Counted from the first letter of the stretch, positions 5,151-31,626 are shown. The stretch: 37,836 nt of DNA from Candidatus Nitricultor lacus (GCA_007128145.1 SKXZ01000224.1:1-37836); one strand, 5' to 3'. Notes: generated from the letters alone by a model not told the origin. Translations and numbers: made by a program.

Positions 5151-5168
5151 AGTACTTCAACCGGTCAC

Positions 5169-5196
5169 AGTATACCACCCGGGAAAAAAGAGTCAA
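5169..5196 (-). promoter_or_regulatory. Sigma70-type promoter for the riboswitch/btu operon
   Basis: Minus strand: TTGACT (5196-5191), 16 nt spacer, TGgTATACT (-10 at 5174-5169, extended TG). The predicted TSS is a few nt before riboswitch P1. Confidence 0.7.
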
Positions 5197-5201
5197 GGCT
5201 T

Positions 5202-5398
5202 TAAAAAGCGGGGGAAGGTAGGGCGGGGAAGTGGGGAATTGGAAAGGCGGTGGAATTCCACTACTCACGACTCCCTACTCCCGACTCACTGACTTTGCAC
5301 CCCTTCTACCCTTTTACCCTTATACCCGTCTACTTAGATGCCCGTCTACCCTTTTACCAATATACACATATACACATATACGCGTATACGCATTTCCG
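5202..5398. repeat. Mosaic intergenic repeat block: module C (inverted, 5202-5247), module A (5258-5298, + orientation), module B 8-nt periodic tract (5299-5398)
   Basis: CCACTAC TCACGAC TCCCTAC TCCCGAC TCACTGA heptamers are followed by ACCCTTTT ACCCTTAT ACCCGTCT ... ACACATAT ACACATAT ACGCGTAT ACGCATTT octamers. The same modules recur at 23530-23760 and 31385-31607. Confidence 0.85.
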
Positions 5399-5412
5399 TT
5401 CGAGCTCTTGAA

Positions 5413-8608: not shown

Positions 8609-8807
8609 TCCGCGTCAGCTCCTTTCTCACTACTTTTCTATACCTCAACCACTCCTTCTCTCCCTCAATTCCCCCGTATCTACAGTTTTCTTATTCACCT
8701 GATGTGATTTGCGATGTGTGAAATGAACCTTATTTATTATAGAATATATATCAATTCCAGAAATATGAGAAAAATTCAAAAGGCTATTGAGGGTTATGGG
8801 CGTTTAT

Positions 8808-8846
8808 TTACTACTCACGATTCACGACTCACGACTCACTGTATTT
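8808..8846 (+). repeat. Module A heptamer repeat, sense-oriented in the 5' leader of the nitroreductase gene
   Basis: TTACTAC TCACGAT TCACGAC TCACGAC TCACTGT, then ATTTCAGAAC GGAGG TTTTCA ATG (8864). Confidence 0.85.
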
Positions 8847-8863
8847 CAGAACGGAGGTTTTCA

Positions 8864-9592
8864 ATGAACGAAGAACTGGGAGCACGTTTTCAGCGTTTTA
8901 CCAAGTATTATCCGGGAGTAGCCCCTTCAAGGAAAATCAGTCAAACCTCACCCCCTGAGCCATTCAAAACCTACACGGATGTTCCGGTTGTGCAACTACC
9001 GACCCCAACCACGCTTTCTGCGCCCTTGCAGCAATTACTCAAGCAGCGTAAAAGCGTGCGGCATTATGAAAGGAAAGCTCTTACTCCCGAAGAGGTTGGA
9101 ACGCTTCTGTGGGCCGCAGGCGGTGTGCGGAGCCATGAGGGAAACTATTACTTTCGCACCGCTCCTTCTGCCGGAGCCCTCTATCCCCTGGAAACGTACG
9201 TTGCAGCCAACCGGGTGGAAGGAATCCCGGCCGGTATCTACCACTACCGGGTAAGGGAACACCTGCTGGAAGAAATAAACAAAGGTGAAAAGGGAGCAGA
9301 CTTCGCCAAAGCCTGCATGGGGCAGGATTTCCTCTTCCAGGCACCGCTGGTGGTAGCCTGGACAGCGGTCTTTGCCCGTGCAGAGTGGAAATACGGAGAC
9401 CGGGCTTACCGCTATGTGTACCTGGATTGTGGCCACGTGGCCCAAAACCTCGCCCTTGCCGCCTGTGCCATGGGGTTGGGGTCCTGCCAGGTTGGAGCGC
9501 TCTTTGATGATAAGGTCAATTCACTGCTTGGCGTGGACGGGGAAAAGGAAAGTATCCTGTATATGAGCTCGGTGGGTGCACCCGGTGAATAA
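8864..9592 (+). CDS. SagB-type dehydrogenase / nitroreductase-family protein
   Basis: Start reassigned to ATG 8864 (SD GGAGG); the track ORF's first 50 aa are translated repeat. RKSVRHY, SAGALYP and LDCGHVAQNLALAA are nitroreductase-fold hallmarks. Confidence 0.8.
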   Translation: MNEELGARFQRFTKYYPGVAPSRKISQTSPPEPFKTYTDVPVVQLPTPTTLSAPLQQLLKQRKSVRHYERKALTPEEVGTLLWAAGGVRSHEGNYYFRTAPSAGALYPLETYVAANRVEGIPAGIYHYRVREHLLEEINKGEKGADFAKACMGQDFLFQAPLVVAWTAVFARAEWKYGDRAYRYVYLDCGHVAQNLALAACAMGLGSCQVGALFDDKVNSLLGVDGEKESILYMSSVGAPGE

Positions 9593-9644
9593 AATACACG
9601 TGAGCGAGCGCGAAAGAGCAGATATTTCCGGAAAAAGGGAGTCG

Positions 9645-10271
9645 GTGTATTCCGCCCTTATCTGGGATTTCGACGGTACGCTTTTCAATACGTATCCGGC
9701 TATGGCTAAAGCCTTGAGCAGGGCTCTCGAGAAAATGGGTCACCAACTTCCTGCCCCGGAGGCCCACAGGCTGCTCAAGGTTTCCCTCCGCCATGCCGTG
9801 GAAGTCTCTCGAAACCTTTTCGGTCCCATAGAAAAGGTAGAACTGGAACAACGCTTTTTAGAAGAAAGGCGAGCGGTTGAGGAGCCCTTATCCCAACCCT
9901 TCCCCGGGGCAAAAGAAGTGTGTGAGCACATGCGTGCAACGGGAGGACGCAACTTTATATACACGCACAAAGAAAAAACCGTGGTAGAGAGGCTCCTGCA
10001 CCGATTCGGGATGGAAAAACTCTTCAGTGATATCGTGGGAGGAGATGACGGCCATCCCCACAAACCGTCCCCGCACGGGTTTCTGTACCTCGTGAAACAA
10101 CATAACCTTTCGCCCTCGGCCACCCTTACGGTGGGTGACCGTCCCCTCGATATCACGGCGGCCCATGCAGCGGGACTTGCAGCGGTCCAACTGGTCGAGG
10201 AGGGAAGCCAGGTGGCAGAAGACGCTGACTACCACATCCGTCAACTGATCGAACTGATTCCACTTGTATAG
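9645..10271 (+). CDS. HAD-superfamily hydrolase (phosphoglycolate phosphatase-like, subfamily IA)
   Basis: Motif I is IWDFDGTL. It also has a VGD...D motif IV region. The likely start is GTG 9645 (SD AAGGGAG); the track start at 9576 overlaps the previous gene. Confidence 0.8.
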   Translation: MYSALIWDFDGTLFNTYPAMAKALSRALEKMGHQLPAPEAHRLLKVSLRHAVEVSRNLFGPIEKVELEQRFLEERRAVEEPLSQPFPGAKEVCEHMRATGGRNFIYTHKEKTVVERLLHRFGMEKLFSDIVGGDDGHPHKPSPHGFLYLVKQHNLSPSATLTVGDRPLDITAAHAAGLAAVQLVEEGSQVAEDADYHIRQLIELIPLV

Positions 10272-10277
10272 CGGAAT

Positions 10278-11390
10278 TCAGAGCACTTCAGGCATAAAGC
10301 GGCCGTCACGGTAGAAAATTTCTCCATCGGCCGCTATTTCTCCCCCTCCACGCATGTCACACAGCATATCCCAATGAAGAGAAGAGCGGTTTTTGCCGCC
10401 CGCCTCCACCATGGAATCGCCCAGGGCAAGGTGCACCGTCCCCCCGATTTTTTCGTCAAAGAGCATATTGTGCGTGAATTTCTCGATCCGATTATTTGTA
10501 CCGATGGCCACTTCACCAAAAGAGGAAGACCCCTCGTCTGTTTCGATAAGAGAATGCAGAAGGTTTTCACCTTTGCGGGCACGGGCTTCCTTTACCCTGC
10601 CCTTTTCCATCCGAAGCCATATACCCTCAACTTCCCGTCCCTGGAAAATGCCCGGAAAATCGAAGGTGATCTCTCCATCCACCACGCCTTCGAGCGGAGA
10701 GGTAAAGATTTCCCCGTCAGGGAAATTCGCCTTTCCGCAGCAATTCACCCACTTCCTGCCCTTGATACCCACGGTGAGGTCGGTTCCCCGGGACCGTATC
10801 CGCAGCATTTCCTTTTTTGAAAGATACTCAACCCACCGCTCCTGCTCTTTTTCAACCTCCCGCCAGGCCGCCACCGGATCATCCTCATCCAGTCTACCCG
10901 CACGGAACACAAAATCGGTGTACTCTTCAATACTCATACCCGCCTCCTGGGCATCGGCATTGGTGGGAAATTGCGTGCCGCACCAGCGTAAACTCCCCTC
11001 ACCCATGCGCTGGGAGAATAAACGGCGAGTTTCTCTATCAGCGCGCATCGCGATTCTTATACGTTCCGGGTCAATGTTTGTCCGTGCACGGGTGTTCCAT
11101 CCACCCCAAGCGGATATGAACACATCCGCTTTTTCCACCACGGTGCGATATATCGTGTTTTCATGTGCAAGCGCTTCTTCTTCCGCGTGGCGCAACCGTA
11201 TTCGGGATACAGAATCCAGTGTCACCCAGGGCTCCACCACCGCTCCGCACTGTACAGCCTTTCTCGCTACCGCTTCGATAAACGGGATGGCTATATCTTC
11301 GGCCGCGATATATACTCTATCCCCCCGGCGTACCTGGGTCGAATATGTCACCAGAACATCTGCAAGCTTGTGGAGCCTTGAATCGATCAC
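10278..11390 (-). CDS. M29-family aminopeptidase (AmpS/PepS, aminopeptidase T-like)
   Basis: Start reassigned to GTG 11390 (SD AAGGAGGAGG). The N-terminus IDSRLHKLADVLVTYS and the C-terminal HLALGDS / HWDM motifs are typical of peptidase M29. The track ORF's first 26 aa are translated repeat. Confidence 0.8.
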   Translation of the reverse strand: MIDSRLHKLADVLVTYSTQVRRGDRVYIAAEDIAIPFIEAVARKAVQCGAVVEPWVTLDSVSRIRLRHAEEEALAHENTIYRTVVEKADVFISAWGGWNTRARTNIDPERIRIAMRADRETRRLFSQRMGEGSLRWCGTQFPTNADAQEAGMSIEEYTDFVFRAGRLDEDDPVAAWREVEKEQERWVEYLSKKEMLRIRSRGTDLTVGIKGRKWVNCCGKANFPDGEIFTSPLEGVVDGEITFDFPGIFQGREVEGIWLRMEKGRVKEARARKGENLLHSLIETDEGSSSFGEVAIGTNNRIEKFTHNMLFDEKIGGTVHLALGDSMVEAGGKNRSSLHWDMLCDMRGGGEIAADGEIFYRDGRFMPEVL

Positions 11391-11407
11391 ACCGCACCTC
11401 CTCCTTT

Positions 11408-11441
11408 GTAAATGCAGTGAGTAGGGAGTCGTGAGTAGTGG
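11408..11441 (-). repeat. Module A heptamer repeat, sense-oriented immediately 5' of the aminopeptidase SD
   Basis: Minus strand: CCACTAC TCACGAC TCCCTAC TCACTGC ATTTAC AAAGGAGGAGG TGCG GTG. Confidence 0.85.
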
Positions 11442-11593
11442 AAAAAACACCCAAACCCTCAACTGCATTTAACATATTTGATGCCGCAACGTATGTTGCT
11501 GGGCGGCTCCTTTGTGAATGCAGTGATTACATAAAAACATACTTTACCATGAAGAGGATTTTCGGAAAAGTGCATCTCTATAAAAGGCCTGAA

Positions 11594-12055
11594 GGCAGGG
11601 GAATGCCCTTCGGGCCGGGAGACGGGAGTCGTAAGACGTAAGACGGATAAAGACGGGGGAAAGGATTGAAAAATGCGTGAGGGGTGAGGGGCCATGTAAA
11701 GTATGAAGTATGATTTCAGAAGTATGAAGTCAGATTTTCAAATCTACATTCATAAATCCGACTTCAGCAATTCCTGTGTCATTCCGGCATGTGGTAAACC
11801 GGAATCCAGTGGCTTTCTTAAAGGCGGTCTAGGAGTGAGTGTTGAAGGGAAAAAACTTTTGACCGTTGGTGTATTAACCCTAAACTCTAGACTCTAAACC
11901 CTAAACAGCTTTTATAGGGCGGTCTAGGGTCGAGCGTTAAGAGTTTAGAGCAAGGGACGTTCGAAGGTTGAGCACAACCACTCATGGCTAAAAATGGGGA
12001 CGCATCCAGGACCCCACTTCATGCCGGGGTGACGAAATGTGGTTGGCCGTGAGAT
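11594..12055. repeat. Mosaic repeat block X (modules E, C-like, AGTATGA heptamers, I, H, CCCTAAA heptamers, G)
   Basis: It shares ordered modules, in inverted orientation, with 16666-16978. Module G (12009-12055) is 47/47 identical to the reverse complement of 16666-16712. Confidence 0.85.
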
Positions 12056-12119
12056 ATAAGAAGAAACTCTGATCCTTCTCTTCCGTAGTAAGAAAAAAGA
12101 CAAATATCAGGAGAGTACC

Positions 12120-12527
12120 ATGAAGCAGAGAGCAAGTTTCAATCACCTTGTAGACGTATTTCTTTTGGCTTGTGTTTTTTTTGTGCTTCTTTTCACTGCA
12201 GGTTGTGCCCCGTCTCATTCTCCTCAGCCGCGGGATGAAGCGGATTTTCTTGGAGAAATAATCCAAATCTCAGAAAACCCGCACCAAACGACCGAGGGAA
12301 AGATCCTGGTGGAAAATCATGATGAACCGGAGGAGGGCTTTGACCTGGTTTGGCTTTTTGTCGATGGGGATACCGTAATCATGGATTACCGGGTTGAGCC
12401 TCCTCAAAGCGGAAATTTCAGGGATCTTGCAATCGGTCAGAAAGTAAATGTATGGACGGATGATATTTTTCTTTTAACCTATCCTCCTCAGGGAGGTGCG
12501 ATACACATCCACATACTCGAGGACTGA
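12120..12527 (+). CDS. Small lipoprotein (possibly DUF3221-like)
   Basis: Signal peptide with lipobox LFTAGC; 135 aa. The C-terminal TYPPQGGAIHI resembles the SYPxQ motif I associate with DUF3221 (family call weak). Confidence 0.5.
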   Translation: MKQRASFNHLVDVFLLACVFFVLLFTAGCAPSHSPQPRDEADFLGEIIQISENPHQTTEGKILVENHDEPEEGFDLVWLFVDGDTVIMDYRVEPPQSGNFRDLAIGQKVNVWTDDIFLLTYPPQGGAIHIHILED

Positions 12528-12634
12528 GCAAGTCCTTACTGAAAACCCATAAATTACGGGGAATATTTTTACATTCCGTACCTTTTCTCTACATATACGC
12601 ACAACACATCAATATTTACCGGGAGGCTTATATC

Positions 12635-12997
12635 ATGCAAAAAACTCTTCGTCTGGTATCCATTGGTCTCGTCGTCACAGTGTTTCTCTTTACCCTGAGC
12701 GGTCTTGCATCTGCGCATCCACCGTCTGCGGTGAATCTTGAGTACGACCTGGAAACCAAAGTGCTTACCATTACCACGCCCCATAGTGTAGGCGATTCCA
12801 CTGATCACTATATCGACCTTATAACAGTATCACTCAACGGTGAAGAGATCGTTAGACAAAACTTCTTCACCCAAGTGACTTCAGGTGAGCAAGAAGCGAT
12901 TTACCTGGTAATCGACGCAGAAGCCGGGGATACCTTAACGGTTTTTGCCAACTGTAACCGTTTTGGGGATGCAGAAGCCTCACTCACCGTGGAATAG
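12635..12997 (+). CDS. Small secreted protein with superoxide-reductase-like (desulfoferrodoxin Fe-binding fold) sequence pattern
   Basis: Signal peptide ends ...GLASA/HPPS. The HPP..., ...PHSVGDSTDHYID and ...CNRFG spacing resembles SOR centre II ligands (H, H, H, C-N-x-H-G) but lacks the last His. Confidence 0.35.
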   Translation: MQKTLRLVSIGLVVTVFLFTLSGLASAHPPSAVNLEYDLETKVLTITTPHSVGDSTDHYIDLITVSLNGEEIVRQNFFTQVTSGEQEAIYLVIDAEAGDTLTVFANCNRFGDAEASLTVE

Positions 12998-13038
12998 GTA
13001 AATGCGGGCTATGAATCTACAGGCCGTCAGGATACGCC

Positions 13039-13067
13039 TTGACGCAAAAAGGAAAAAGTGGTAGTAT
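13039..13067 (+). promoter_or_regulatory. Near-consensus sigma70-type promoter of orphan RNA-1
   Basis: TTGACG (13039-13044), 17 nt spacer, TGgTAGTAT (-10 at 13062-13067 with extended TG). The predicted TSS is about 13074. Confidence 0.65.
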
Positions 13068-13073
13068 CTTTTC

Positions 13074-13252
13074 AGATCACGGGTTCCGAGGAGTTTTTTG
13101 GTCCGAAGGCCGGAAGCCGTCCTGGGAAACACCTGCAAGAGGGACGACCGGCATGTTCTGTAACCGCCGGAAGATATGAGGGGAAAGATGCGTTGCCCCG
13201 GCGTGAGAGAGAACTTCCAGGTTCGTTGGGACCCGTGATCTTTTGTATTTTT
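13074..13252 (+). ncRNA. Orphan structured small RNA (RNA-1), class unassigned
   Basis: A 14 bp closing helix pairs AGAUCACGGGUUCC (13074-13087) with GGGACCCGUGAUCU (13228-13241) and is extended by GGAGUU/AACUUCC. Three internal hairpins follow (GGUC-CGAA-GGCC; CCGG..CGUCC/GGACG..CCGG; CGCC..GGGG/CCCC-GGCG), then the 3' tail UUUUGUAUUUUU. There is no credible ORF and no downstream same-strand gene. Confidence 0.55.
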
Positions 13253-13275
13253 GGAACAGAAGAGGCTTAATCCCT

Positions 13276-14115
13276 CTACCCTTTGACCGCTCCTTCAGTC
13301 AGACCACCTACCAGATGGCGTTGTACAAAGAGAAAGATAACGAACACCGGTACACAAATAAGGACTGAGGCGGCCATCAAATTCCCCCAGATCGTCTCAT
13401 ATTGCCCCACAAAATCAAAAATGCCTCGCGGGAGTGTGCGTTTTTCCGCGCTGGTGATGAAGGTGAGCGCGAACATAAATTCCTGCCAGGTAATAAAGAA
13501 AACATAGGAAGCGGTGGCTCCGATCCCGGGCCGTACCAGGGGAAGTACTACTTTCCAGAATGCCTGCCAGCGGGTACACCCGTCAATAAGGGCCGCTTCT
13601 TCCAGGTCCCTGGGGATACCGGTGAAAAACCCGCGTAACAACCACACCCCCACCGGCACGGAAAAAGCAAGATAAGCGATAATGAGCGATAAAAATGAAT
13701 CGATAAGACCAACCCTGCTCATGATGCGGTAGAGAGGAACTATGATCGCTGCGAGGGGAAAAAGCTGGCTCAAAAGGAGCAGGGTAAAAAATCCCATCCT
13801 CCCCGGGAAATACAGCCGGGCAAAACCGTAGGATGAAAATATCGCTACCGCTACTACGACTAATGTAGTACTGCCGGCTACCAGGAAACTATTGAGAAAA
13901 TAACGGGCAAACATGGATCCCCTGCCGAACACATGGAAATAGTTCACGACCGTCGGCCGCTGGGGAATCAAGCGGGGTGGGACCGTAAACTGTTCATCCG
14001 GTTCCTTGAGAGACATGGAAATCATCACGGCAAAAGGAAAGAGCACAAAAGCCACCAGCAGTACCACGAATATGCCGGTGACCACTTTTTTGCGGGTTTC
14101 TATGGCACGCATCAT
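13276..14115 (-). CDS. CUT1-family sugar ABC transporter permease (MalG-like)
   Basis: 279 aa with 6 TM segments and the EAA loop DLEEAALIDGCTRWQAFWKVVLPL. It overlaps the upstream permease by 4 nt. Confidence 0.85.
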   Translation of the reverse strand: MMRAIETRKKVVTGIFVVLLVAFVLFPFAVMISMSLKEPDEQFTVPPRLIPQRPTVVNYFHVFGRGSMFARYFLNSFLVAGSTTLVVVAVAIFSSYGFARLYFPGRMGFFTLLLLSQLFPLAAIIVPLYRIMSRVGLIDSFLSLIIAYLAFSVPVGVWLLRGFFTGIPRDLEEAALIDGCTRWQAFWKVVLPLVRPGIGATASYVFFITWQEFMFALTFITSAEKRTLPRGIFDFVGQYETIWGNLMAASVLICVPVFVIFLFVQRHLVGGLTEGAVKG

Positions 14116-14981
14116 TCCATACTCCCCCTTTTCAGGCTTAAGCGAACGTAAATCAGGCTAAATACCAGAAGAATGATGAAGTCGATTACCGCAAAGCGAG
14201 ACGCTTCCCCAAACCGGAAGCGCCGGAAGCCTAAATCATATATATAAGTGGGAAAGATATGACTTGATTCAGCCGGTCCCCCACCGGTCATAACGTATAC
14301 CAGTTCAAAATAGTTGAAGGTCCATATAAAGGTGAGCAGCAATGTGATGGTGATGATCGATCGCATGGAAGGCAAGGTGACGTGAAAAAATTTCCCCCAG
14401 TCACCCGCACCGTCAATTTCAGAAGCTTCGTACAGTTCTACCGGAACCGTTTGTAATCCCGCAAGATACATAAGTGTCGAAAAAGGGAAACCCTTCCAGA
14501 TGGCAGCTATAATGACCGCATACAGCGCAAGGCCGGGAAGACTCAGCCAGGTGAGAGGCCGGTCGATGATGCCCAACGTGCGTAAATAATGGTTGATCAT
14601 ACCTAATTGAGGATCATAGAGGAGACGCCACACCATGGCTGCCACGACACCAGGCATTACCCAGGGAAGAATGACAATTCCCCGTACCAGGGTCCGTCCG
14701 AAAAAGGATCGGTTAAGAAGGATAGCAGAGCTCAAACCCAGGATAAATTGAAAAATGATGACCAGTACCGTCCACAGAAGGGAATTTGTGAGTACCCGTG
14801 CAAGCATGGGAGAAGCAAGAAGGCGCTGGTATGCGTTGATCCCCAGGTAACGAGTAGCGGTGAGAGACATATCAGAAAGACTGTAGATGAAAGTGAGTAC
14901 CAGCGGATAGAACAGAAGCACCGCGAGCAAAACCAGGGAAGGCAGTATAAAAAGGTATCCGGAAATCCATTCTCGTTTCAT
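14112..14981 (-). CDS. CUT1-family sugar ABC transporter permease (MalF-like)
   Basis: 289 aa with the EAA loop YEASEIDGAGDWGKFFHVTLP. Confidence 0.85.
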   Translation of the reverse strand: MKREWISGYLFILPSLVLLAVLLFYPLVLTFIYSLSDMSLTATRYLGINAYQRLLASPMLARVLTNSLLWTVLVIIFQFILGLSSAILLNRSFFGRTLVRGIVILPWVMPGVVAAMVWRLLYDPQLGMINHYLRTLGIIDRPLTWLSLPGLALYAVIIAAIWKGFPFSTLMYLAGLQTVPVELYEASEIDGAGDWGKFFHVTLPSMRSIITITLLLTFIWTFNYFELVYVMTGGGPAESSHIFPTYIYDLGFRRFRFGEASRFAVIDFIILLVFSLIYVRLSLKRGSME

Positions 14982-15000
14982 TATTTCACCTCTTTAAAAC

Positions 15001-15030
15001 AAGCAGGGGGGCTTTTTATCCCCCCTGCTT
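15001..15030 (-). terminator. Intercistronic stem-loop between the binding-protein and permease genes (partial terminator / mRNA stabiliser)
   Basis: Perfect 11 bp stem AAGCAGGGGGG / CCCCCCTGCTT with an 8 nt loop. On the minus strand it is followed by GUUUUAAAGAGGUGAAAUA AUG. Confidence 0.6.
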
Positions 15031-15038
15031 TCGTAACT

Positions 15039-16316: not shown

Positions 16317-16332
16317 GAAATATTCCTCCCTT

Positions 16333-16383
16333 GTGAATGCAATGAATAGGGAGCAGGGAGTCGTGAGTAGGGGGAGGAGTAAA
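16333..16383 (-). repeat. Module A heptamer repeat, sense-oriented immediately 5' of the binding-protein SD
   Basis: Minus strand: CCCCTAC TCACGAC TCCCTGC TCCCTAT TCATTGC ATTCACA AGGGAGG AATATTTC ATG. Confidence 0.85.
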
Positions 16384-16613
16384 TCCCTCATTTCTAATGG
16401 CTCGCGGATCCCCTTTCCCCATTTCTCCCCTTTCCCCTTATTTTACAGGGATCCAGAGGCTTCTTATCAAACAAGAACCAAGGAAACAGAATTCCCATCC
16501 CTGTTTATTACATAAAGTGACAAGCTTACTCCATACGCTAATAACCGGATAATGCACCTCTCATTTTTACACTCCAAATCGTTTTCTGATTATTTTTTAT
16601 CACCTCCCCGGTA

Positions 16614-16653
16614 GGTGCAGTGAGTAGGGAGTGGGGAGTCGTGAGTAGTGGAA
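16614..16653 (-). repeat. Second module A copy upstream of the same operon
   Basis: Minus strand: CCACTAC TCACGAC TCCCCAC TCCCTAC TCACTGC ACC. Confidence 0.85.
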
Positions 16654-16665
16654 ACTCAATTCTTA

Positions 16666-16978
16666 ATCTCACGGCCAACCACATTTCGTCACCCCGGCAT
16701 GAAGTGGGGTCCAGAGGCAGAGGCAGTGCCCCATGCCGGGGTGACACAACAGGGCATTCCCCGCTGTATTCGTCCCCTGCATTTTAAAGCCACTGGATTC
16801 CGGCTTACTCCATGCCGGAATGACACAGGATATTGATGATTTCAGATTTATGATTGTAGATTTGTAAAGCCTTTCCACTTCCCCATTTCAACAATTCCCC
16901 GCCTCACCTTCCCCGCTCCTCCTTCCCCGGCCTTTATCCGTCTCACTGCCCGAAGGGCATATCCCGCTGTATTCGTCC
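16666..16978. repeat. Mosaic repeat block Y (modules G, E-like, H, I, C, E), the inverted counterpart of block X
   Basis: Its reverse complement aligns module by module with 11594-12055. Its distal part (16888-16978) is inside the 3' end of the URO-D-family ORF. Confidence 0.85.
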
Positions 16979-18087
16979 ACCAATTTTGATACTTCCCGTA
17001 CCCGTTCGATATCTCCCGGTGGAGAAATTTCATCGGATATACCCAGTATCAAACGGGGAGCAAAAAGATCGATAACTTTTTTTGAAGTTTCCACAAATTC
17101 TTCCCTTTCGTATTCGGGTAAAAAGTGGAGCATGGGGATGCCGTCCAGAAGAATAGTCTCACCCATGGCTTCCTTTATCTCTTCCAGAGTAACATCTCCC
17201 TGGGGAAGCGGGGTGGCCGCTTCGATCCCGTCGAAACCAGCGTCATTGATGTAGGGGAGCAGGGGTTTGAGAACACCGTCCATGTGTACGTGGCAGTACT
17301 TGTGCGCACGGTGAAGCTGATCCACTCTCTTGCGGTAATAGGGAACCATGTATTCTGAAAATAGGCGGGGAGAATTAAACCGCCCGTCGATATTTTCACC
17401 GAAGTTGAGAATACGTACCGGGCAATTGCACAATACCTCGAAAAGTTCATCTTCAGCTTCCTGCGTAATTTTCAGGTATTCCTTGATGCGTTCTGGATAA
17501 TCGTAAAGGGCTTCGCAGGTTCGGACGATTCCAAGGTACTCGAGAAACAGGCGTTGAAAAGGGCTGCGTTCCCAGTAAAACTGTATCTCACCCCGGTCAC
17601 CGATTACACGGCGTGCTTCCTGGTAAAAATCCTGATCAAAGCGATAACGGGTATGACGGTATATATACTCGATAACGGCCAGGTCATCCGGTCCATTCAC
17701 GGGATGATCGAGATAATGCCAGGACAATCCGCCCTCAGCCAACCCTTTTCGGCCGGTGAGGGTGCCAACAGGGGTGTCAAAGGTCACCTCGATGTCTTTT
17801 TCCCGGCGAATTTCCCGAATTTCTACTCCACCGGTGTACTCAAAGTGTATATACGTACGAGGTGTTGAGATGTCCGTTCCCTCACCGTACCAGTAGCGTA
17901 TCGAAGCCCCCACATCATCGTACACGCCAAGAAGCGGGGTGTCACGGTAGGCTTGCGGTAATTCCCCGGTGAGCTTGTTCACATGGTACCAGTGTTCCAA
18001 CCTCGGTTGCCAGGCCACCCGGTCGATTTCTTTCCTCTGAAAGGTACGTAAAACCCGTTCCCGGTCAGTCAAGCGTTTTTTCTCCAT
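16888..18087 (-). CDS. Uroporphyrinogen-decarboxylase (URO-D) family protein of unknown substrate
   Basis: Start at ATG 18087 (MEKKRLTDRERVLRTFQRKEIDRV, typical URO-D-like/MtaA-like N-terminus; SD GGGGGGAG). The last 30 aa or so (…SGICPSGSETDKGRGRRSGEGEAGNC) are encoded by repeat modules. Confidence 0.6.
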   Translation of the reverse strand: MEKKRLTDRERVLRTFQRKEIDRVAWQPRLEHWYHVNKLTGELPQAYRDTPLLGVYDDVGASIRYWYGEGTDISTPRTYIHFEYTGGVEIREIRREKDIEVTFDTPVGTLTGRKGLAEGGLSWHYLDHPVNGPDDLAVIEYIYRHTRYRFDQDFYQEARRVIGDRGEIQFYWERSPFQRLFLEYLGIVRTCEALYDYPERIKEYLKITQEAEDELFEVLCNCPVRILNFGENIDGRFNSPRLFSEYMVPYYRKRVDQLHRAHKYCHVHMDGVLKPLLPYINDAGFDGIEAATPLPQGDVTLEEIKEAMGETILLDGIPMLHFLPEYEREEFVETSKKVIDLFAPRLILGISDEISPPGDIERVREVSKLVDEYSGICPSGSETDKGRGRRSGEGEAGNC

Positions 18088-18217
18088 TGAATTTCTCCCC
18101 CCAAGAGTCGTGAGCCGTGAAAACACACAACATACAGTACCTTTTCCTTCAAACTTCGCTGCACAATAGCCTTATATACCTTTACAGGCATAAAGAACTA
18201 TAAACCATGCATCATAG

Positions 18218-19393
18218 CTATACCAATGTCTCGAAGTAGGAGGTTATGGCCTGCCGGGCTGCTCCCAAGGCGACCGTGTCAACCTCTCCCTTGCTTCTCA
18301 ATATGGGGGTGTCAGAAGCTCCGAGAGAGAAAATATGTTCATGGGCTACGCTTTGGGCTTCTTCACAGTAAATGGGGCAGCGGCGGCTTATTTCTCCTCC
18401 CAGTATGACAGCTTCCGGATTCAACACGTTGACAACATTCGCAATTCCCTTGCCCAACATCATTCCCGCCTCAACCAGCACATCTCGCACCATGGGATTG
18501 CCGGCTTCATAGGCCTGCATAACCCAGTCAAAATCAATCTCAGGGAGCGCGTTTCCATCCCTTTTCTGCAATCTTTTTTTCACTTCTCTCGAGAGGGCCG
18601 AAGTCGATGTGTACTGTTCAAGGCATCCCCTGTTTCCACAATAACAAGGGATCCCATCACGCTCGATTACCATGTGGCCGAATTCACCACTCGCACGGTT
18701 ACGCCCTCTCACCATCTCACCTTTGTAGACCATCCCCCCACCTGTACCCCAATCCAGATACACATAGAAGAATGTTTTATACTCCCTTCCCCAACCGAAT
18801 ATCATCTCGGCTAAAGTAGAAGCGCGCGCGACATTTTCGATAAACACCGGGTAAGGGAAAAGCGGAGAGAACTCTTCTTCGGCGTCAATGGAATGCCAGC
18901 CAAAAAAAGGCGATTGAGTTATGTGTTCAGCCGACTTGAACAAGTACCCCGGAGTGCCCACCCCAACTCCCGCGATCATTTCCCTCGGAAGAGAAGCTTT
19001 TTCGCGCATCCTTTCTACCTCAAGGGATAACTGGGAAGCCAGAGAAAGAGGGCCTCGTGAGATGTCGGGTACAACAGTGGTGCGGTCTTGAATGGTGCCT
19101 GAAAGGTCACAGAGGACAAGTGAGGTCGCTCGGGAAATCTCCGCCCCGAAAACATAACGATGATCAGCGTTGATTTCAAGCAGGAGAGGACGTCGTCCGC
19201 CGGAAGAATCTCCCTTGCCCACTTCACGCAGCAGCTTCTCTTCGAGCAAGCTATCGACAATGCGTGATACAGAAGGGAGAGACAGGCCGATGCGCCGGGA
19301 AAGTTCCGTTCGAGACAAGGGAAACTCTTTCTCGATGACCCGTAAAATACTTTGCCGGTTGATTTTACGAATTAAGGGTGGGTTCCCTCTCAT
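18218..19393 (-). CDS. ROK-family transcriptional regulator (NagC/XylR-like)
   Basis: Start at ATG 19393. N-terminal wHTH (SRTELSRRIGLSLPSVSRIVDSLLEE), ROK glycine motifs, and the zinc motif CYCGNRGCLEQY. Confidence 0.85.
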   Translation of the reverse strand: MRGNPPLIRKINRQSILRVIEKEFPLSRTELSRRIGLSLPSVSRIVDSLLEEKLLREVGKGDSSGGRRPLLLEINADHRYVFGAEISRATSLVLCDLSGTIQDRTTVVPDISRGPLSLASQLSLEVERMREKASLPREMIAGVGVGTPGYLFKSAEHITQSPFFGWHSIDAEEEFSPLFPYPVFIENVARASTLAEMIFGWGREYKTFFYVYLDWGTGGGMVYKGEMVRGRNRASGEFGHMVIERDGIPCYCGNRGCLEQYTSTSALSREVKKRLQKRDGNALPEIDFDWVMQAYEAGNPMVRDVLVEAGMMLGKGIANVVNVLNPEAVILGGEISRRCPIYCEEAQSVAHEHIFSLGASDTPILRSKGEVDTVALGAARQAITSYFETLV

Positions 19394-19424
19394 TTTCTTA
19401 CTTAACCTTTGTAAGAATGAATCT

Positions 19425-19453
19425 ATTGTAGGAAAGCACACAAACTCTGTCAA
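19425..19453 (-). promoter_or_regulatory. Consensus-like sigma70 promoter of the ROK regulator gene
   Basis: Minus strand: TTGACA (19453-19448), 17 nt spacer, TACAAT (19430-19425). Confidence 0.65.
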
Positions 19454-19536
19454 GTGGTAAAATCCGGTGAGTCCTCCCACGAACAATCACGTTTATATTC
19501 AGGCGCATTCACTGTCCAAGTGAAATCGAACGCTTA

Positions 19537-19564
19537 TTGACACGGGGATTTAAGGGAGTATAAT
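19537..19564 (+). promoter_or_regulatory. Consensus sigma70-type promoter of orphan RNA-2
   Basis: TTGACA (19537-19542), 16 nt spacer, TATAAT (19559-19564). It is divergent from the ROK promoter, 84 bp away. Confidence 0.65.
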
Positions 19565-19569
19565 AAAAG

Positions 19570-19743
19570 ATGTAGCGGGCTTTCGAGAGATTGGATGCCT
19601 TGAGGGTCGAAATGTTGGGAGGTTTATCTCCCTAAAAAAACAGCAATGCTGTAGACCCTTTACCGGACGGGGAACCTCGGAAAGGCCAGAGAGGTGCTCC
19701 GAAAGGGTGCAAAGGCAAAAGGTCTGTTGAAAGCCCGTTTTTT
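19570..19743 (+). ncRNA. Orphan structured small RNA (RNA-2), class unassigned
   Basis: The closing helix CGGGCUUUC/GAAAGCCCG (3' arm 19729-19737) is followed by U6. It is extended by AGAUU/GGUCU and UGCCUU/AAGGCA. An internal three-way junction GGGUC...GACCC encloses hairpins GGGAG-GUUUAU-CUCCC and ACAGC-AAU-GCUGU, and there is a further branched arm. There is no ORF and no downstream same-strand gene. Confidence 0.55.
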
Positions 19744-19753
19744 CGTTGAGGTT

Positions 19754-20059
19754 TCATCCCAAAACCACGCGCATCACCCATACTGTCACTACTCCAACCG
19801 CCATGGAAAGCAAGAGGTTTTTGGAACGTAACGCAGTCACGGCGGTAGCAGCGATGGCTATGGCCTCGGCTACTCCACCGCGGGCTGCCGCGGGAGCCAC
19901 AATGGATATCAGGACGGTTCCCGGCACATGCTCCAACAGGCGCCTCAAGCGAGGGGAGAGGCTCCGGCGGTCCGCCATCCAGTATCCAAATATTCTGGTT
20001 GCATAGGTGACTGCCGCCATAGCACAAATGGTGGCAATAGTCCGTACGTCAATTCCCAT
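19754..20059 (-). CDS. azlD: AzlD-family branched-chain amino acid transport protein
   Basis: 101 aa with 3-4 TM segments, immediately downstream of and overlapping azlC by 11 nt. Confidence 0.75.
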   Translation of the reverse strand: MGIDVRTIATICAMAAVTYATRIFGYWMADRRSLSPRLRRLLEHVPGTVLISIVAPAAARGGVAEAIAIAATAVTALRSKNLLLSMAVGVVTVWVMRVVLG

Positions 20060-20759
20060 GGGTGAACGCTCCGGTGATGCTTCCCGCCACAGCCCCTGCC
20101 AGTATATACCAGCTGCCGGGCAACAAGCGGGAGAAAATCACGGCTGTACATGCCGCCACAGCCCAGGGGAACACATCCGACTTTCCTCTCCACATACCAC
20201 ACAACAAGGACACAAAAACAGCGGTAAAGGCGAAATCAAAACCATATCGCTCCGGTTGAGCAAGTGCTCCCCCCACCGTTCGGCCGATGGCGGTAGAACT
20301 CAACCAGGCGATGAATACGGCCAACCCACTTCCCAGAAAAAATGCCGCATCCCTGTTTCCCCGAGCGAACCATCCCATGGTGAGCGCCCAGCTTTCGTCA
20401 TTCATCAAGAAGAGTGATCCATAGGCGTACGAAGGCCGGAGGCCGGAGAACCAGCGCGCCAGTGCCGCTCCCATCAAGATATAGCGCAGATTCACTACCA
20501 GGGTGGTGAGAACAAGAGTTGTGGCAGGAGGAGGATGTGCCCATATCTCAAGAGCGACAAGTTGCGAGGAACCGGCAAATACGGTAGCGCTCATGAACAC
20601 CGCCTCGGAGAGCTCTAACCCTACCTGGCCGGCCAGAACACCGAAAACCACACCGTATGTCGCTACCGCCAACGCTATCGGTATGCTCTGTGCCATTCCG
20701 GTGAACAAAGCGCTTTTTGTGAAGGGAGGTATAGTTTTCAAACGGTTATTTTTTTCCAC
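20049..20759 (-). CDS. azlC: AzlC-family amino-acid exporter subunit
   Basis: 236 aa polytopic protein. VFAGSSQLVALE is the typical AzlC motif. Confidence 0.8.
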   Translation of the reverse strand: MEKNNRLKTIPPFTKSALFTGMAQSIPIALAVATYGVVFGVLAGQVGLELSEAVFMSATVFAGSSQLVALEIWAHPPPATTLVLTTLVVNLRYILMGAALARWFSGLRPSYAYGSLFLMNDESWALTMGWFARGNRDAAFFLGSGLAVFIAWLSSTAIGRTVGGALAQPERYGFDFAFTAVFVSLLCGMWRGKSDVFPWAVAACTAVIFSRLLPGSWYILAGAVAGSITGAFTHGN

Positions 20760-21654
20760 CGTTTTTCTCTCCCTTTTCTTCAGGCAAGCGTCCCAGGATA
20801 TTAACCACTATCGCACCAACAAGGGCGACTGCACCCCCGAGGAGTGAAAGGTAGGTGGGTATTTCGCCCAACCACACCCAGGCAATAAGGATAGCCAGAA
20901 CAGGAGACAGGTACAAGAAACTCGCCAGGCGGGAAGCAGGGAGATATGCAAAAGCATGGGTCCAGGCCACATAAGCAAGTGCCGCGGGAAATACGCCCAG
21001 GTACACGACAGCAGCCGTTGCCGAGAACGGGGCATTTCGCAGGGTTTCTGAAATACCTCCCAGGAAGGGAAACATAAAAAAGGTACCTGACCAGATAACA
21101 TAGGTAGTAAGTTCGATTCCACGATACCGTTTCAAGAGAGGTTTCTGGAAAACGAAGTACAGACTGGTGGAGACAGCGGCCAGCAAAACAAGAAACGCAC
21201 CTGTTTCCAGCCTGAAACCCCCTCCTTCACCCAGAGAAAGAAGCATCACTCCGAAAAAACTCAATCCAATACCCAGCCATCCCCAATGATTCAAATTTTC
21301 CTGCAGGAAAAAACGCGCCAACAACGCTATAAATACCGGACTCGAGGAGATGAGGAGACTGGCGGACCCCGCTGCCACGGTGAGTTGACCGTAACTTAAA
21401 GCCAGGTGGTATACGGTTATACCGAGAAAACCCAAAAGCAGAATGAGTGGCACATCGCGCCTTTCGGGCATACGCATACGGGTAAGAGAGGCATAAACAC
21501 CGAGCACTATCGAAGCGACCAGAAAGCGGAAAAGTGCAAGGTGTGCCGGAGGGTATGCCGACAGGGCAGCTCCGATGCCGGCAAACGCAGAGGACCACAT
21601 GAGGATTGTGATCATGGCCAGGAGAAGGTACGGAGATTCAGCTGTGCGTTTCAT
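20746..21654 (-). CDS. EamA/DMT-superfamily transporter
   Basis: 302 aa, 10 TM segments and two EamA-like halves. It overlaps both neighbours. Confidence 0.8.
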   Translation of the reverse strand: MKRTAESPYLLLAMITILMWSSAFAGIGAALSAYPPAHLALFRFLVASIVLGVYASLTRMRMPERRDVPLILLLGFLGITVYHLALSYGQLTVAAGSASLLISSSPVFIALLARFFLQENLNHWGWLGIGLSFFGVMLLSLGEGGGFRLETGAFLVLLAAVSTSLYFVFQKPLLKRYRGIELTTYVIWSGTFFMFPFLGGISETLRNAPFSATAAVVYLGVFPAALAYVAWTHAFAYLPASRLASFLYLSPVLAILIAWVWLGEIPTYLSLLGGAVALVGAIVVNILGRLPEEKGEKNGGKK

Positions 21655-22508
21655 CCCTTGTTTATACTCCCGCTCAAGCGATCGAGTCCCTCGTTCATGC
21701 TTCCTGTACGATAGCCGGAAAGGTCAAGAGTGACATAAAGGTACCCCAGCTTCTGCAGTTCCTCTGTTACTTTAACCCGTATTTCTTTTTTCATGAAACG
21801 CTCGAATTCGCTTTGCGCCAGTTCAACCCGGGCCGTATCACCATGATGGCGTACCCGGAACTGGGTAAATCCCAATTCGAACAACACATTTTCTGCTCTT
21901 TCAATGTTCTCGAGGAGTGAGGAGGTAAGCACGGTATGATAGGGGATCCTGCTCGCCAGGCAGGCATAAGAGGGGCGATCCCAGGTTGGAAGATCCAGGT
22001 TGCGGGATAGAGCGCGAATTTCTTTTTTGGTGAAACCCGCTTCCCGTAGAGGACTTCGTATCTCGAGCTCTTGCAGGGCCTGCAGGCCGGGGCGAAAGTC
22101 TTTTTCATCGTCAAGGTTTGAACCTTCTCCCACCCAATCGCACTCTTGACGGGAGGCCACTTCACGCAGGCGAATAAACATTCCTTTTTTACACCAGTAA
22201 CAGCGCTCAGGCGTATTTTGTGCCACCGACACATCACACAATACGTCATGCTCGAGTACCTGTAAGGGCAGACCGAGATCCACGGCAGTCTCCCGGGCCC
22301 ACATGAGTTGCCGCTTGCCCATTACAGAAGAGTTTATAAACATGGGAAACGTTTTTCCCGGTAGTACCTGGCAGGCGGTATAAGCTAAAAAGGTACTGTC
22401 TACACCACCTGAATAAGCCACCAGAACCTTGGAGGCGGTGGAAAGAATATGTTTGAGTTTTGTATATTTTTCCAGGACAGTATCCTTTTCAACAAATATG
22501 TGCACCAT
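21651..22508 (-). CDS. larE: LarE-family PP-loop ATP-dependent sulfur transferase (TIGR00268-like), Cys-rich variant
   Basis: PP-loop AYSGGVDS. ACLASRIPY, RVRHHGDTARVEL and YVTLDLSGYRTGSMN align by eye with L. plantarum LarE (SCSVSSRFPYG, RVRFHNDIARIEL, YVTLDLGGFRSGRMN). There is an additional CYWC motif. Confidence 0.7.
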   Translation of the reverse strand: MVHIFVEKDTVLEKYTKLKHILSTASKVLVAYSGGVDSTFLAYTACQVLPGKTFPMFINSSVMGKRQLMWARETAVDLGLPLQVLEHDVLCDVSVAQNTPERCYWCKKGMFIRLREVASRQECDWVGEGSNLDDEKDFRPGLQALQELEIRSPLREAGFTKKEIRALSRNLDLPTWDRPSYACLASRIPYHTVLTSSLLENIERAENVLFELGFTQFRVRHHGDTARVELAQSEFERFMKKEIRVKVTEELQKLGYLYVTLDLSGYRTGSMNEGLDRLSGSINKG

Positions 22509-23509
22509 TATATCCTCAGGCTTTCCAGTAATTGGTTGGAGGGAGAATCCACCGGGAACTCACGCTTTTCTCCCCCGGCTTTTTCCATTATCACAAGGGC
22601 TTTTGTGTCGGGAAACTTGGAATAACGGATAATAATACGGGATGCGAGCTCTTCGGTGCCGGGATCGAATGCTCCCCTTCCAATCCCCAGCGGTCCCTTT
22701 CGACTCACGGGGAAAAACACTCGATCATCGGACTTTTTCAATTGAAGCAAGCGTTCGTTTTCTTCCTGGTGTCGTGCCACCACCAGCTTGGCACGAGAGG
22801 ATAAACGAAAGTGCCGTCCAAACTTCAAGAGTTCAATATCCTGCATATCAAAGGGAGGATGCTCAAACAAATCTCTCAGGCGATGAGAATAACGGGGATC
22901 GGTGAGCAGGCACCCGCCGGCGGGTGGGGGATAGTTTTCCACCCCCAACTCACGGGCGAGTTCCATCTGGGGTTTGCGGGTCCTGCCGGAAAAATCACAC
23001 AACAGTTCCCTATCCACCCACCCTTTCTTCTCGGGTATGGTAGGAGGGAACTTGCGGGCCGAAAGAGGCCGCAGAAGCATTCCCTCGAGACCGGATTCCC
23101 TCTCTATAGTGCTTAAAGAAGGTCCATGCTGGCTCTTGGGACGCTGCCCAAGCACTTCACCCGTGACGACGAATGAGGCGCCCTCGCGTTCCATCCGCTC
23201 TTTTGTTTTTTGCAGCATCAGGATTTTGCAGTCCACACAGGGATTGAGATACCGTCCGTGTCCGAAGCGAGGAGAACACACCACGCGCAGGGCTTCCTCC
23301 CGCAGAGGGATTTCACGGTAAGAAAGATTCCGGTCCTCACAAAATGCCTTCATTTCCTTGAGTTTCTGTTCCGCGTTTTTTTCATGTTCAAAACCGGTGC
23401 GAAAATGATAGCAAACAATTTTTATACCTTGGCGGGCAACCAGTATGGCTGCCAATCGGCTGTCAAGGCCACCCGAAAACAAGGCAATGGCTTTTATTGT
23501 ATTTTTCAT
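22508..23509 (-). CDS. PP-loop (AANH) ATPase, ThiI/MnmA-like sulfurtransferase without a THUMP domain
   Basis: Start reassigned to ATG 23509 (MKNTIKAIALFSGGLDS = PP-loop). Contains NPCVDCK (CxxC), TGEVLGQRPKSQ and LRPLSA. The track ORF's first 60 aa are translated repeat. Confidence 0.65.
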   Translation of the reverse strand: MKNTIKAIALFSGGLDSRLAAILVARQGIKIVCYHFRTGFEHEKNAEQKLKEMKAFCEDRNLSYREIPLREEALRVVCSPRFGHGRYLNPCVDCKILMLQKTKERMEREGASFVVTGEVLGQRPKSQHGPSLSTIERESGLEGMLLRPLSARKFPPTIPEKKGWVDRELLCDFSGRTRKPQMELARELGVENYPPPAGGCLLTDPRYSHRLRDLFEHPPFDMQDIELLKFGRHFRLSSRAKLVVARHQEENERLLQLKKSDDRVFFPVSRKGPLGIGRGAFDPGTEELASRIIIRYSKFPDTKALVIMEKAGGEKREFPVDSPSNQLLESLRI

Positions 23510-23529
23510 AGAGTGTTTCCCTCTAAATA

Positions 23530-23870
23530 GATTGTATATGCGTAGACAAATGGGTGGATGTGTAAATGCGTATAAGGGTAAAAGGGGGGGGGCAAATGCA
23601 GTGAGTCGGGAGTAGTGGAAAGGTTTAAATGCCGTGAGGAGTAAGGAGTGAGGGGTGAGGAGTAAAAGGCCCCACTTCTTACGATTCACTGCTCACGGCA
23701 TTTATCATTCCCCATTTCACCTTCCCCGCCCCACTTTCCCCGGCTTTTACCCGATTCACGGCCCGAAGGACTGTCACTGCCCGAAGGGCATTCCCCCTCG
23801 ACTCTAACCCTTGACTCTCGGCTGCCTTTAGATTTCCCTTCTAACTTCTAACCTCTTACTCTTCACCGTT
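23530..23870. repeat. Mosaic repeat block (module B inverted 23530-23591, A inverted 23592-23622, long hairpin D 23627-23703, C 23707-23752, E 23754-23797, CTCTAAC/AACTTCT heptamers to about 23870)
   Basis: It is largely collinear with 31385-31607 for about 190 nt. Module A/B is sense-oriented upstream of the ThiI-like gene. Confidence 0.85.
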
Positions 23871-23938
23871 TTTAGAATCCTTCTTCCCCAGTTTTTTCTC
23901 TTAGTATACATATTCGGGATGAGTTTTTCACCCCAATC

Positions 23939-31355: not shown

Positions 31356-31384
31356 ATGCAGTGATGGGTGTTGGTGGGCCAGAA

Positions 31385-31607: not shown

Positions 31608-31626
31608 TCTTACTTCTCCCTGAATT

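Follow-up and report, generated by a model that had tools for sequence, protein, structure and literature searches.

Tandem heptamer arrays upstream of unrelated genes in an Atribacteraceae contig, viewed as the core of a possible portable leader cassette

The stretch of DNA analyzed here, called the window throughout, is the 37,836-nucleotide contig GCA_007128145.1 SKXZ01000224.1:1-37836 of Candidatus Nitricultor lacus, a species of Atribacteraceae (phylum Atribacterota) represented by a metagenome-assembled genome (MAG). Its intergenic regions hold eight copies of a C-rich tandem heptamer repeat, module A, several of which lie in sense orientation just upstream of the Shine-Dalgarno (SD) sequence of genes for a nitroreductase, an M29 aminopeptidase, a sugar-binding protein, a URO-D-like protein, and a ThiI-like protein. 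An earlier note on this DNA had described five such arrays, and the arrays, SD motifs, and start codons were all found at the coordinates it gave. Its gene names also agree with Pfam, which assigned the products to Nitroreductase, Peptidase_M29, SBP_bac_1, URO-D, and ThiI/NFACT-R_2, families with no common pathway. Genes called independently on same-species contigs have products of 242, 370, and 425 amino acids, corresponding to starts at 8864, 11390, and 16316.

The M29 protein of the window is 100% identical to one on the NCBI MAG GCA_007119915.1, its next relative (67% identity) is annotated as Atribacteraceae, and homologues of the sugar-binding protein are annotated as Atribacteraceae, Caldatribacteriaceae, or Atribacterota. 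Same-species contigs from four samples are 99.6 to 99.9% identical to the window, and their ends tend to fall inside repeats. For comparison between species, we used a 17-kb syntenic contig from a ~90%-identical relative (L150), whose sugar-binding protein is 90% and whose ThiI-like protein is ~80% identical to that of the window, and the more distant relative GCA_035477455.1 (locus L143), with 54 to 82% amino acid identity. A scan of genome contigs with an 18-nt pattern (14 specified bases) was too unspecific, giving 102 rows that were mostly chance matches, and showed the Atribacterota affiliation and the presence of similar arrays in other phyla. A metagenome scan with CCACTACTCMCK...ACTCACTGNNTT gave 36 loci, nearly all of 52 to 67% GC, taxonomically unassigned, and many from soil-type samples; none came from a close relative, and they served only for the cross-phylum side test described below. 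The locus of the M29 homologue P0004 (L145, 38% GC) has no arrays and was uninformative.

Module A and its placement relative to genes

Module A has the consensus TT(T)CCACT-(ACTCNCN)2-5-ACTCACTGCATTT. Its double unit ACTCMCKACTCMC, with up to 2 mismatches allowed, occurs 31 times against 4.5 expected (standard deviation, 2.1), and none of 100 shuffles reached 31. Tandem Repeats Finder reported a period of 7 with 3.6 to 3.9 copies at 5263-5287, 8813-8839, 11416-11440, and 31433-31458, that is, at least 3 head-to-tail units, as long simple-sequence repeats (LSSRs) or short tandemly repeated repetitive sequences (STRRs) are defined; a regular-expression search found arrays of 3 to 5 units. The units in related genomes are mostly ACTCACT, ATTCACG, or GATCACG.

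Measured from the 3' end of the array, the next start codon on the same strand is 17, 17, 16, 17, 82, and 301 nt away in six of the copies. The other two have no downstream gene on their own strand, one lying in a convergent spacer (31424-31469) and one antisense between two minus-strand genes (5258-5298); the earlier note had set both apart from the rest. When eight arrays were placed at random, in either orientation, over the 4282 intergenic bases, finding at least four within 25 nt of a start was rare (permutation P = 0.0005), so that sense placement immediately 5' of the SD of unrelated genes, the central claim of the earlier note, is far above chance, and the same architecture is seen in other Atribacterota. 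All SD-adjacent copies have a common 3' flank of the form CAYTGCATTYASARRGGAGG, which is absent from the leaders of array-less genes. The seven copies listed previously are all present, but an eighth, at 16618-16655 on the minus strand, had been overlooked. Table 1 gives the copies and their parts.

Table 1. Module A copies and associated repeat features in the window, with nhmmer matches to the element X profile
Feature	Position	Strand	Composition and context	Profile match or repeat families
Nitroreductase-upstream copy	8778..8858	+	G-rich arm ATTGAGGGTTATGGGCG, T-rich spacer, four heptamers at 8813-8840 (ACTCACG ATTCACG ACTCACG ACTCACT), flank GTATTTCAGAAC, SD GGAGG 8853-8857, ATG 8864	E=7.6e-09, partial copy
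Full element X, upstream of M29 aminopeptidase	11394..11512	-	Hairpin 11484-11501, GGCATCAAATATGTTAAATGCAGTTGAGGGTTTGGGTG, T-run, array 11408-11441, flank and SD GCATTTACAAAGGAGGAGG, GTG 11390	E=9.5e-42 (11512-11394)
Orphan 3' flank CACTGCATTCACAAAGGAG	11507..11525	-	Directly 5' of element X; no gene after it	Weak match, 11528-11507
Copy upstream of sugar-binding protein	16323..16383	-	ACTCCTC CCCCT ACTCACG ACTCCCT GCTCCCT ATTCATT, then GCATTCACAAGGGAGG; ATG 16316	Partial, 16375-16323, E=4.3e-06; family D3
G-rich module B, GGGGAAAGGGGAGAAATGGGGAAAGGGGA	16409..16439	-	Upstream of the 16333-16383 array	
Eighth copy	16599..16655	-	TTTCCACT ACTCACG ACTCCCC ACTCCCT ACTCACT GCACCTACCGGGGAGG; array 16618-16655; SD-like flank, yet no start codon or gene next to it; 301 nt upstream of the sugar-binding-protein start	Partial, 16654-16599, E=1.6e-07; families D3, I5
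Degenerate copy TCACGGCTCACGACTC	18105..18120	-	17 nt before ATG 18087, URO-D-like gene	
Composite upstream of ThiI-like gene	23520..23765	-	B, inverted heptamer hairpin, A 23592-23622, octamer C CCCTTTTACCCTTATAC, TATACA-type D; ATG 23509	Families D5, D6, I10, I11, I17
Composite B-A-C-D	5195..5400	+	A 5258-5298; antisense to both flanking minus-strand genes; upstream of a promoter-like site and the cobalamin riboswitch of the next gene	Families I1, I7, I11
Composite B-hairpin-A-C	31356..31626	-	A 31424-31469; convergent spacer, no same-strand gene downstream	Families D5 (93%), D6 (90%), I1 (91%)

A mosaic element with filled and empty sites

Module A is the core of a larger mosaic in which a G-rich arm, a T-run, and the C-rich heptamers are followed by GCATTTACAAAGGAGG. 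Read 5' to 3' in the mRNA sense, a typical unit has a small hairpin, which may be missing, and a G-rich arm (either TTGAGGGTTTGGGTG or heptamers of the GGGGAAG type), continues with a T-run and two to five C-rich NNTCNCN heptamers, and closes with the conserved, SD-containing flank ACTCACTGCATTTACAAAGGAGG. The stand-alone copies at 8808 and 11408 have the G-rich arm TTGAGGGTT(A)TGGG and the T-run 5' of the array. Other tandem modules, including GGGGAAG-type heptamers, CCCTTTTA-type octamers, TATACAC, AGGAGTA, and AAGTATG, crowd the intergenic regions of the window, and three composites combine such modules in the order B (G-rich), an inverted heptamer hairpin where present, A, C (octamers), and D. 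These composites have 57- to 58-nt stretches in common at 90 to 93% identity: 5256-5313 is 91% complementary to 31409-31466 over 58 nt, and 23600-23656 is 93% identical to 31446-31502 over 57 nt. They fold as extended, imperfect hairpins through pairing between G-rich and C-rich modules, with a z-score of about -3.0 (-3.04) for 23505-23765 and of -1.3 and -0.75 for the other two. Module A is also found in 3' and convergent regions, as part of larger mosaic repeats.

A version of ~120 nt, element X, occurs at 78 to 89% identity in three genomes: in the window (11512-11394, before the M29 gene), in L150 (2273-2387, before an FtrD-like gene), and in L094 (36-159), where no clear open reading frame (ORF) lies downstream. 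With nhmmer, a profile built on this longest version also matched the partial copies of Table 1 and copies in L143, L150, L075, L035, and L048. A direct repeat of the CACTGCATTYACAAAGGAG-type flank is present at the ends of the element. Its 5' hairpin (11484-11501, minus strand) reads CAGCAAC-ATAC-GTTGCGG in the window and L150 and CTGCCAC-TGC-GTGGCAG in L094, so that two stem positions change on both sides (A-T to C-G, and an A/G mismatch to T-A); coming from only two sequence types, this is a weak hint of a conserved stem. Extended ORFs running through the arrays (e.g., 10278-11468) arise because the C-rich units have no stop codons, and translation through the arrays was rejected as an explanation, the frame being unconserved in L150 and L094.

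Two comparisons with L150 contrast filled and empty orthologous sites. At the junction of the HTS and FtrD genes, the window reads GGGAGCAAAATAATG, also given as ...TGAAAGGGAGCAAAATAATG, and has no element, whereas L150 has, between GGGAGCAAA and AATAATG, an element X of ~150 nt. This leaves the old SD of the L150 FtrD gene orphaned ~150 nt upstream, and the GAGGAGG of the element stands 8 nt before the same ATG, with the start codon and coding sequence unchanged between the two sites. In the nitroreductase leader, TATTATAGAAT is common to both genomes; L150 reaches the SD within ~10 nt of it, whereas the window has ~95 extra nt (G-arm and array) in between, which are missing from L150 and L143. 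We take the repeat itself to contain a predicted ribosome-binding site (RBS), as seen in the GAGGAGG supplied at the L150 site and in the SD-like flanks that exist with no gene after them (16599-16655 and 11507-11525).

Presence of the arrays also varies at the other loci. Arrays precede the sugar-binding-protein and ThiI-like genes in both the window and L150, but their units and modules differ. In GCA_035477455.1, only one of the five genes retains an array: the M29 gene has a diverged one (GATCACG GTTCACT GTTCACC GATCATG) ~30 nt before its ATG, the sugar-binding-protein gene has only a flank remnant, and the nitroreductase, URO-D-like, and ThiI-like genes have none, the ThiI gene overlapping HTS with no spacer. 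The sugar-binding-protein and URO-D leaders of L154 (68% identity) are bare, and URO-D-like orthologues in L152 and L154 have no array. Unit number differs between species at the sugar-binding-protein, ThiI-like, and M29 loci. Judged by these alignments, together with the shared nonrepetitive flanks, copies have spread by duplication or insertion and turn over fast. The earlier view of the arrays as functional leaders "rather than neutral junk" is not established, as arrays are gained or lost between close relatives and copies occur in 3' and convergent regions.

It is possible instead that the arrays are simple-sequence repeats formed in situ, by independent replication slippage at each locus, and are neutral, with selection filtering their orientation only. 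Orthologous arrays do differ in unit number and sequence, as slippage would produce, and many other heptamer unit types fill the same intergenic regions. Heptamers are also the commonest class of long simple-sequence repeat according to Mrazek 2007, in the summary given in PMC4679880. A neighboring AAGTATG-type heptamer array at 11699-11719 lacks exactly 21 nt (3 x 7) in one of the four population samples (L141), which is direct evidence of slippage-type length variation in intergenic heptamers. The two module A arrays fully covered in all four samples (8808-8846 and 11408-11441) are, however, invariant among them. Slippage also cannot create the nonrepetitive flanks of 40 to 90 nt that copies share at 78 to 93% identity, which counts against such an origin, and neither the 16- to 17-nt spacing nor the conserved boundaries (TTCCACT on the 5' side, ACTCACTGCATTT on the 3' side) would be expected of independent events. 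We consider in situ slippage quite unlikely as the source of module A.

Gene content differences between the window and L150 coincide with repeat clusters. The M29, DUF3221, and URO-D-like genes (10278-12527 and 16888-18087) are absent from syntenic L150. In the window, these genes adjoin the two largest spacers filled with repeats, 11469-12119 and 16392-16887, which have in common a perfect 47-nt inverted repeat (12009-12055/16666-16712) and a 45-nt one at 93%. In GCA_035477455.1, a ~240-nt sequence flanks the M29-HAD-nitroreductase block in inverted copies (9460-9700 and 12700-12940) and resembles a pair of miniature inverted-repeat transposable elements.

Leader folding and the function of the element

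According to the earlier note, the C-rich units (CUCCCU, ACUCC) are complementary to the adjacent SD and could bury it in a hairpin. On such a mechanism, translation would be off until some signal opened the structure. CUCCC units do occur in the copies at 11408-11441, 16333-16383, and 16618-16655, and in the leader of the gene starting at 16316 the proposed CUCCCU:AGGGAG pairing is present in the minimum free energy structure. The complementarity holds for 11408-11441 and 16333-16383 but not for 8808-8846, which has no CUCC unit, nor for most arrays in relatives. Seven leaders (five from the window and two from L143) gave fold z-scores of -0.22 to +1.43 against dinucleotide shuffles, positive in six of the seven. 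For six leaders, we computed the free energy cost of opening positions -16 to +3. The native values, 4.5 to 8.8 kcal/mol, were within the range of random intergenic-like replacements (fraction at or below native, 0.12 to 0.92), and in five of six leaders they lay below the mean of same-composition array shuffles, at or under the 1st percentile in two. The units, in their real order, therefore keep clear of the SD instead of trapping it. No stem with covariation was found. With folds no better than shuffles, opening no costlier than with random sequence, and CUCC units inconstant, we find SD sequestration highly improbable. Another stem, pairing the last unit with the start codon (CAC:GUG or CAU:AUG), was seen in three leaders and dropped because it did not generalize to the others.

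The favored reading is that the element is an insertional leader cassette built on heptamer repeats, comparable to REP2 of Neisseria or BOX of pneumococci. Module A would form the C-rich center of dispersed, mosaic intergenic repeats that make up a family specific to the Atribacterota lineage, and the 3' end of the element would be, or fuse with, the SD, which may explain why arrays lie directly 5' of the SD of unrelated genes. A sense copy landing between a promoter or upstream cistron and a start codon would be tolerated, as it would provide an SD at a fixed distance together with a G-poor, weakly structured leader; the fixed distance would account for arrays ending 16 to 17 nt before the start codon. 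Antisense copies at the same place would carry GUG, UGA, and GGGAG-like motifs and split the SD from the start, and selection would presumably remove them. Elsewhere (at 3' ends, in convergent regions, or upstream of promoters), copies could persist in either orientation. Sense copies at starts would then survive by donating an SD and a G-poor leader, and the element would act as a portable leader and RBS rather than as an SD-sequestering riboregulator. What was directly observed comprises nonrepetitive flanks in common, sites filled in one genome and empty in another, an orphaned SD, the 16- to 17-nt spacing, and the lack of SD-masking structure; the direction of events, the selective filter, and transcription of the arrays are what we infer, and use of the element by the host for regulation is possible. 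Taken as a whole, we give this account about an even chance of being correct.

Several points weigh against it. The polarity of the two filled/empty comparisons could not be fixed because the outgroup lacks the FtrD gene, and the term "insertional" rests on these two. No terminal inverted repeats are evident in the element X alignment. There is no clear target-site duplication at the L150 junction, where any duplication is at most 1 to 3 nt and blurred by ~10% divergence, and no transposase was found in the window. The sample comprises 8 module A copies in the window and ~20 in relatives. The M29 orthologue keeps an array at 67% amino acid identity, and the sugar-binding-protein and ThiI-like genes have arrays with differing units in two species, either of which could mean selection for function instead of tolerance. 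Transcription of the arrays would follow from promoter-like sites, which are not enriched, and from the intercistronic position of the L150 copy, which argues for transcription in that it sits between cistrons separated by 14 nt in the window. Finally, sense (ACTCACT)n arrays in other phyla end 4 to 6 nt before the starts of seven genes validated with Pfam (RtcA, class II aldolase, GlmS, a RarA-like AAA protein, RuvA, PrmC, and HisS), compared with one in the antisense orientation, which hints at a more general role at the RNA level.

With regard to promoters, promoter-like sites lie upstream of arrays at 8718-8745 (plus strand) and 18226-18197 (minus strand), although such sites number 21 overall against 17.5 in shuffles. 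A promoter within the element was considered and discarded, since no site resembling the sigma-70 consensus, which may not be that of this phylum, was found inside it. Searches of the arrays against Rfam 15 gave no match, and the region 8400-24000 yielded just one chance, sub-threshold match at E<=1.

Some of these observations also fit a functional shared leader, in which the transcribed array binds an RNA factor (S1, a cold-shock protein, a KH protein, or the ribosome) or acts as a standby site, enhancing or co-regulating translation. The strong bias in position and orientation would be expected, as would leaders that are if anything less structured than shuffles and a unit order that keeps the RBS more open than same-composition shuffles. 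Retention of the M29 array in a distant orthologue and the 7-to-1 excess of sense arrays within 12 nt of validated starts in other phyla point the same way, and there are analogues in the literature, namely, TAACTGA repeats, for which translational roles are proposed (PMC4679880), and REP2/CREN, for which co-regulation is shown (PMC3184786). Against this, only one of five genes keeps its array in the distant relative and one of three comparable genes lacks it in the ~90% relative, the downstream genes belong to no common pathway, and copies also occur in 3', convergent, and antisense contexts. RBS accessibility is no better than with random replacement sequence, and no candidate binding protein was identified. 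We hold a shared regulatory leader to be unlikely.

A further possibility is that the arrays are operators at the DNA level, with contiguous 7-bp units bound cooperatively by a repressor of the ribbon-helix-helix or another type that blocks transcription. Examples are the omega protein of pSM19035, whose targets are WATCACW heptads, and MetJ, which recognizes tandem 8-bp metboxes. ATTCACG, GATCACG, and AATCACG are among the units that resemble the omega heptad, each array has 2 to 5 contiguous units, and both direct and inverted arrangements are present. An operator would not, however, require such a strong bias in its orientation with respect to the gene, the promoter-like sites are upstream of the arrays and not overlapped by them, and each of the many heptamer and octamer modules would need its own binder. 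No ribbon-helix-helix regulator gene was recognized in the window with Pfam, which gave only Rrf2, ROK, and a PIN protein beside an ORF with a weak DUF6364 match. This makes the operator explanation very doubtful.

The arrays in other phyla are worth describing in their own right. Tandem (ACTCACT/ACCCACT/TTTCACT)n arrays were seen in Acidobacteriota, Cyanobacteria, Bacteroidota, Vulcanimicrobiota, Paceibacterota, and Proteobacteria, among others (loci L005, L023, L034, L039, L047, L053, L084, L085, L087, and L103-L138). They are often inverted pairs forming hairpins, and some end 4 to 6 nt before validated starts with no SD. The automated census of sense and antisense ORFs was made noisy by spurious ORFs that begin at a GTG within an antisense array, and only Pfam-validated cases were kept; the sample was also chosen by our own search patterns and says nothing on enrichment relative to other heptamers. 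A bolder reading, which we regard as speculative and distinctly unlikely, would make G-poor (ACUCACN)n tracts a portable initiation leader shared across phyla and read by some conserved component, for example, S1 or the 30S subunit; in Atribacterota it would be packaged with an SD as a mobile cassette that rewires the RBS of whatever gene it reaches and might thereby bring genes under common regulation.

Known repeat systems and neighboring features

Heptamer arrays before start codons have been known for years in Beggiatoaceae, cyanobacteria, and Xanthomonas and have gone unexplained. In concept, the closest system is that of the Neisseria REP2/CREN and Borrelia plasmid inverted repeats (Delihas 2011, PMC3184786), which are dispersed repeats of ~120 to 150 nt upstream of unrelated ORFs that carry their RBS. 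Like the element described here, they have no terminal inverted repeats, contain internal stem-loops, stand immediately upstream of many unrelated ORFs, and include the RBS. REP2 also holds a promoter and the ATG, whereas here no promoter is convincing and the start codon is part of the gene. The variable tandem heptamer core and the phylum differ as well, and co-regulation, shown for REP2, is here a possibility.

The TAACTGA repeats of marine Beggiatoaceae, cyanobacteria, and Bacteroidetes (MacGregor 2015, PMC4679880) are likewise 2 to 6 tandem heptamers, mostly intergenic and forward, a few nucleotides from the starts of unrelated genes. Apart from the unit sequence, the difference is that TAACTGA overlaps or replaces the RBS in SD-poor genomes, whereas module A precedes a strong SD, 16 to 17 nt from the start, and is embedded in longer conserved flanks and mosaic composites with insertion polymorphisms.

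In the GGGAATC/GGGGA(C/T)T (GGGNATC-type) heptamers of Xanthomonas and Nostoc (Rehm 2015, PMC4692102), the G-rich strand is noncoding and the repeats lie 0 to 50 bp upstream of ORFs. These and the cyanobacterial STRRs are similarly abundant in intergenic regions and place the C-rich strand in the mRNA, as does module A; copies with the G-rich strand on the coding side lie farther from the start, as does module B, and corresponding loci of related species differ in how many units they hold and in the unit sequence. For those repeats, there has been no report of an SD-bearing flank or of filled and empty sites. We rejected a G-quadruplex for module A because its complement has too few G-tracts; only module B looks capable of forming one.

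Pneumococcal BOX elements (boxA-boxB(n)-boxC) and the bacterial interspersed mosaic elements (BIMEs) of E. coli are also intergenic composites of short modules with variable internal tandem subunits, patchy among relatives, predicted to be rich in hairpins, and found in both 5' and 3' untranslated-region-type positions. Their subunits are longer (45 nt for boxB and ~35-nt palindromes for repetitive extragenic palindromes, compared with 7 to 8 nt here), there is no sequence similarity, and no associated transposase (ISStso1-like or REP-associated tyrosine transposase) was identified here. Within a limited body of literature, we found no published description of such repeats in Atribacterota.

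What is new here is the pairing of filled and empty orthologous sites, with one filled site in which the repeat separates the start from the old SD and provides a new one. The bias in position and orientation can thus be given a concrete, testable reason, and the phenomenon is extended to a mostly uncultured phylum. If the cassette reading is true, such elements would be one way in which translation signals change rapidly. Short-read assemblies also break at them, with contigs of the host species ending inside arrays, and they caution against taking every shared 5' motif for a regulon.

Three further features in the window may be noted. A cobalamin riboswitch (4983-5196, minus strand) is the sole Rfam 15 match at gathering score (4983-5163, 109 bits); it lies directly downstream of a promoter-like TTGACT-16-TATACT with TG (5196-5169) and controls a Peripla_BP_2/FecCD/ABC_tran transporter operon. 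At 19537-19745 (plus strand), a perfect sigma-70 consensus promoter, TTGACA-16-TATAAT (12/12; 19537-19564), is followed by a ~170-nt region that has no Rfam match and is predicted to fold into a multibranched structure with a 13-bp closing stem and a U-run (z=-2.8). This region is conserved in the ROK-upstream spacer of L150 and overlaps a mechanical ORF (19632-20027, minus strand), and we consider it a candidate unannotated small RNA. Finally, at 13039-13250 (plus strand), a promoter-like TTGACG-17-TAGTAT with TG precedes a second RNA candidate of ~175 nt, also without an Rfam match, which has a 16-bp closing stem (GATCACGGGTTCC...GGGACCCGTGATC) and a U-rich tail (z=-2.5) and sits in the spacer after the gene at 12635-12997.

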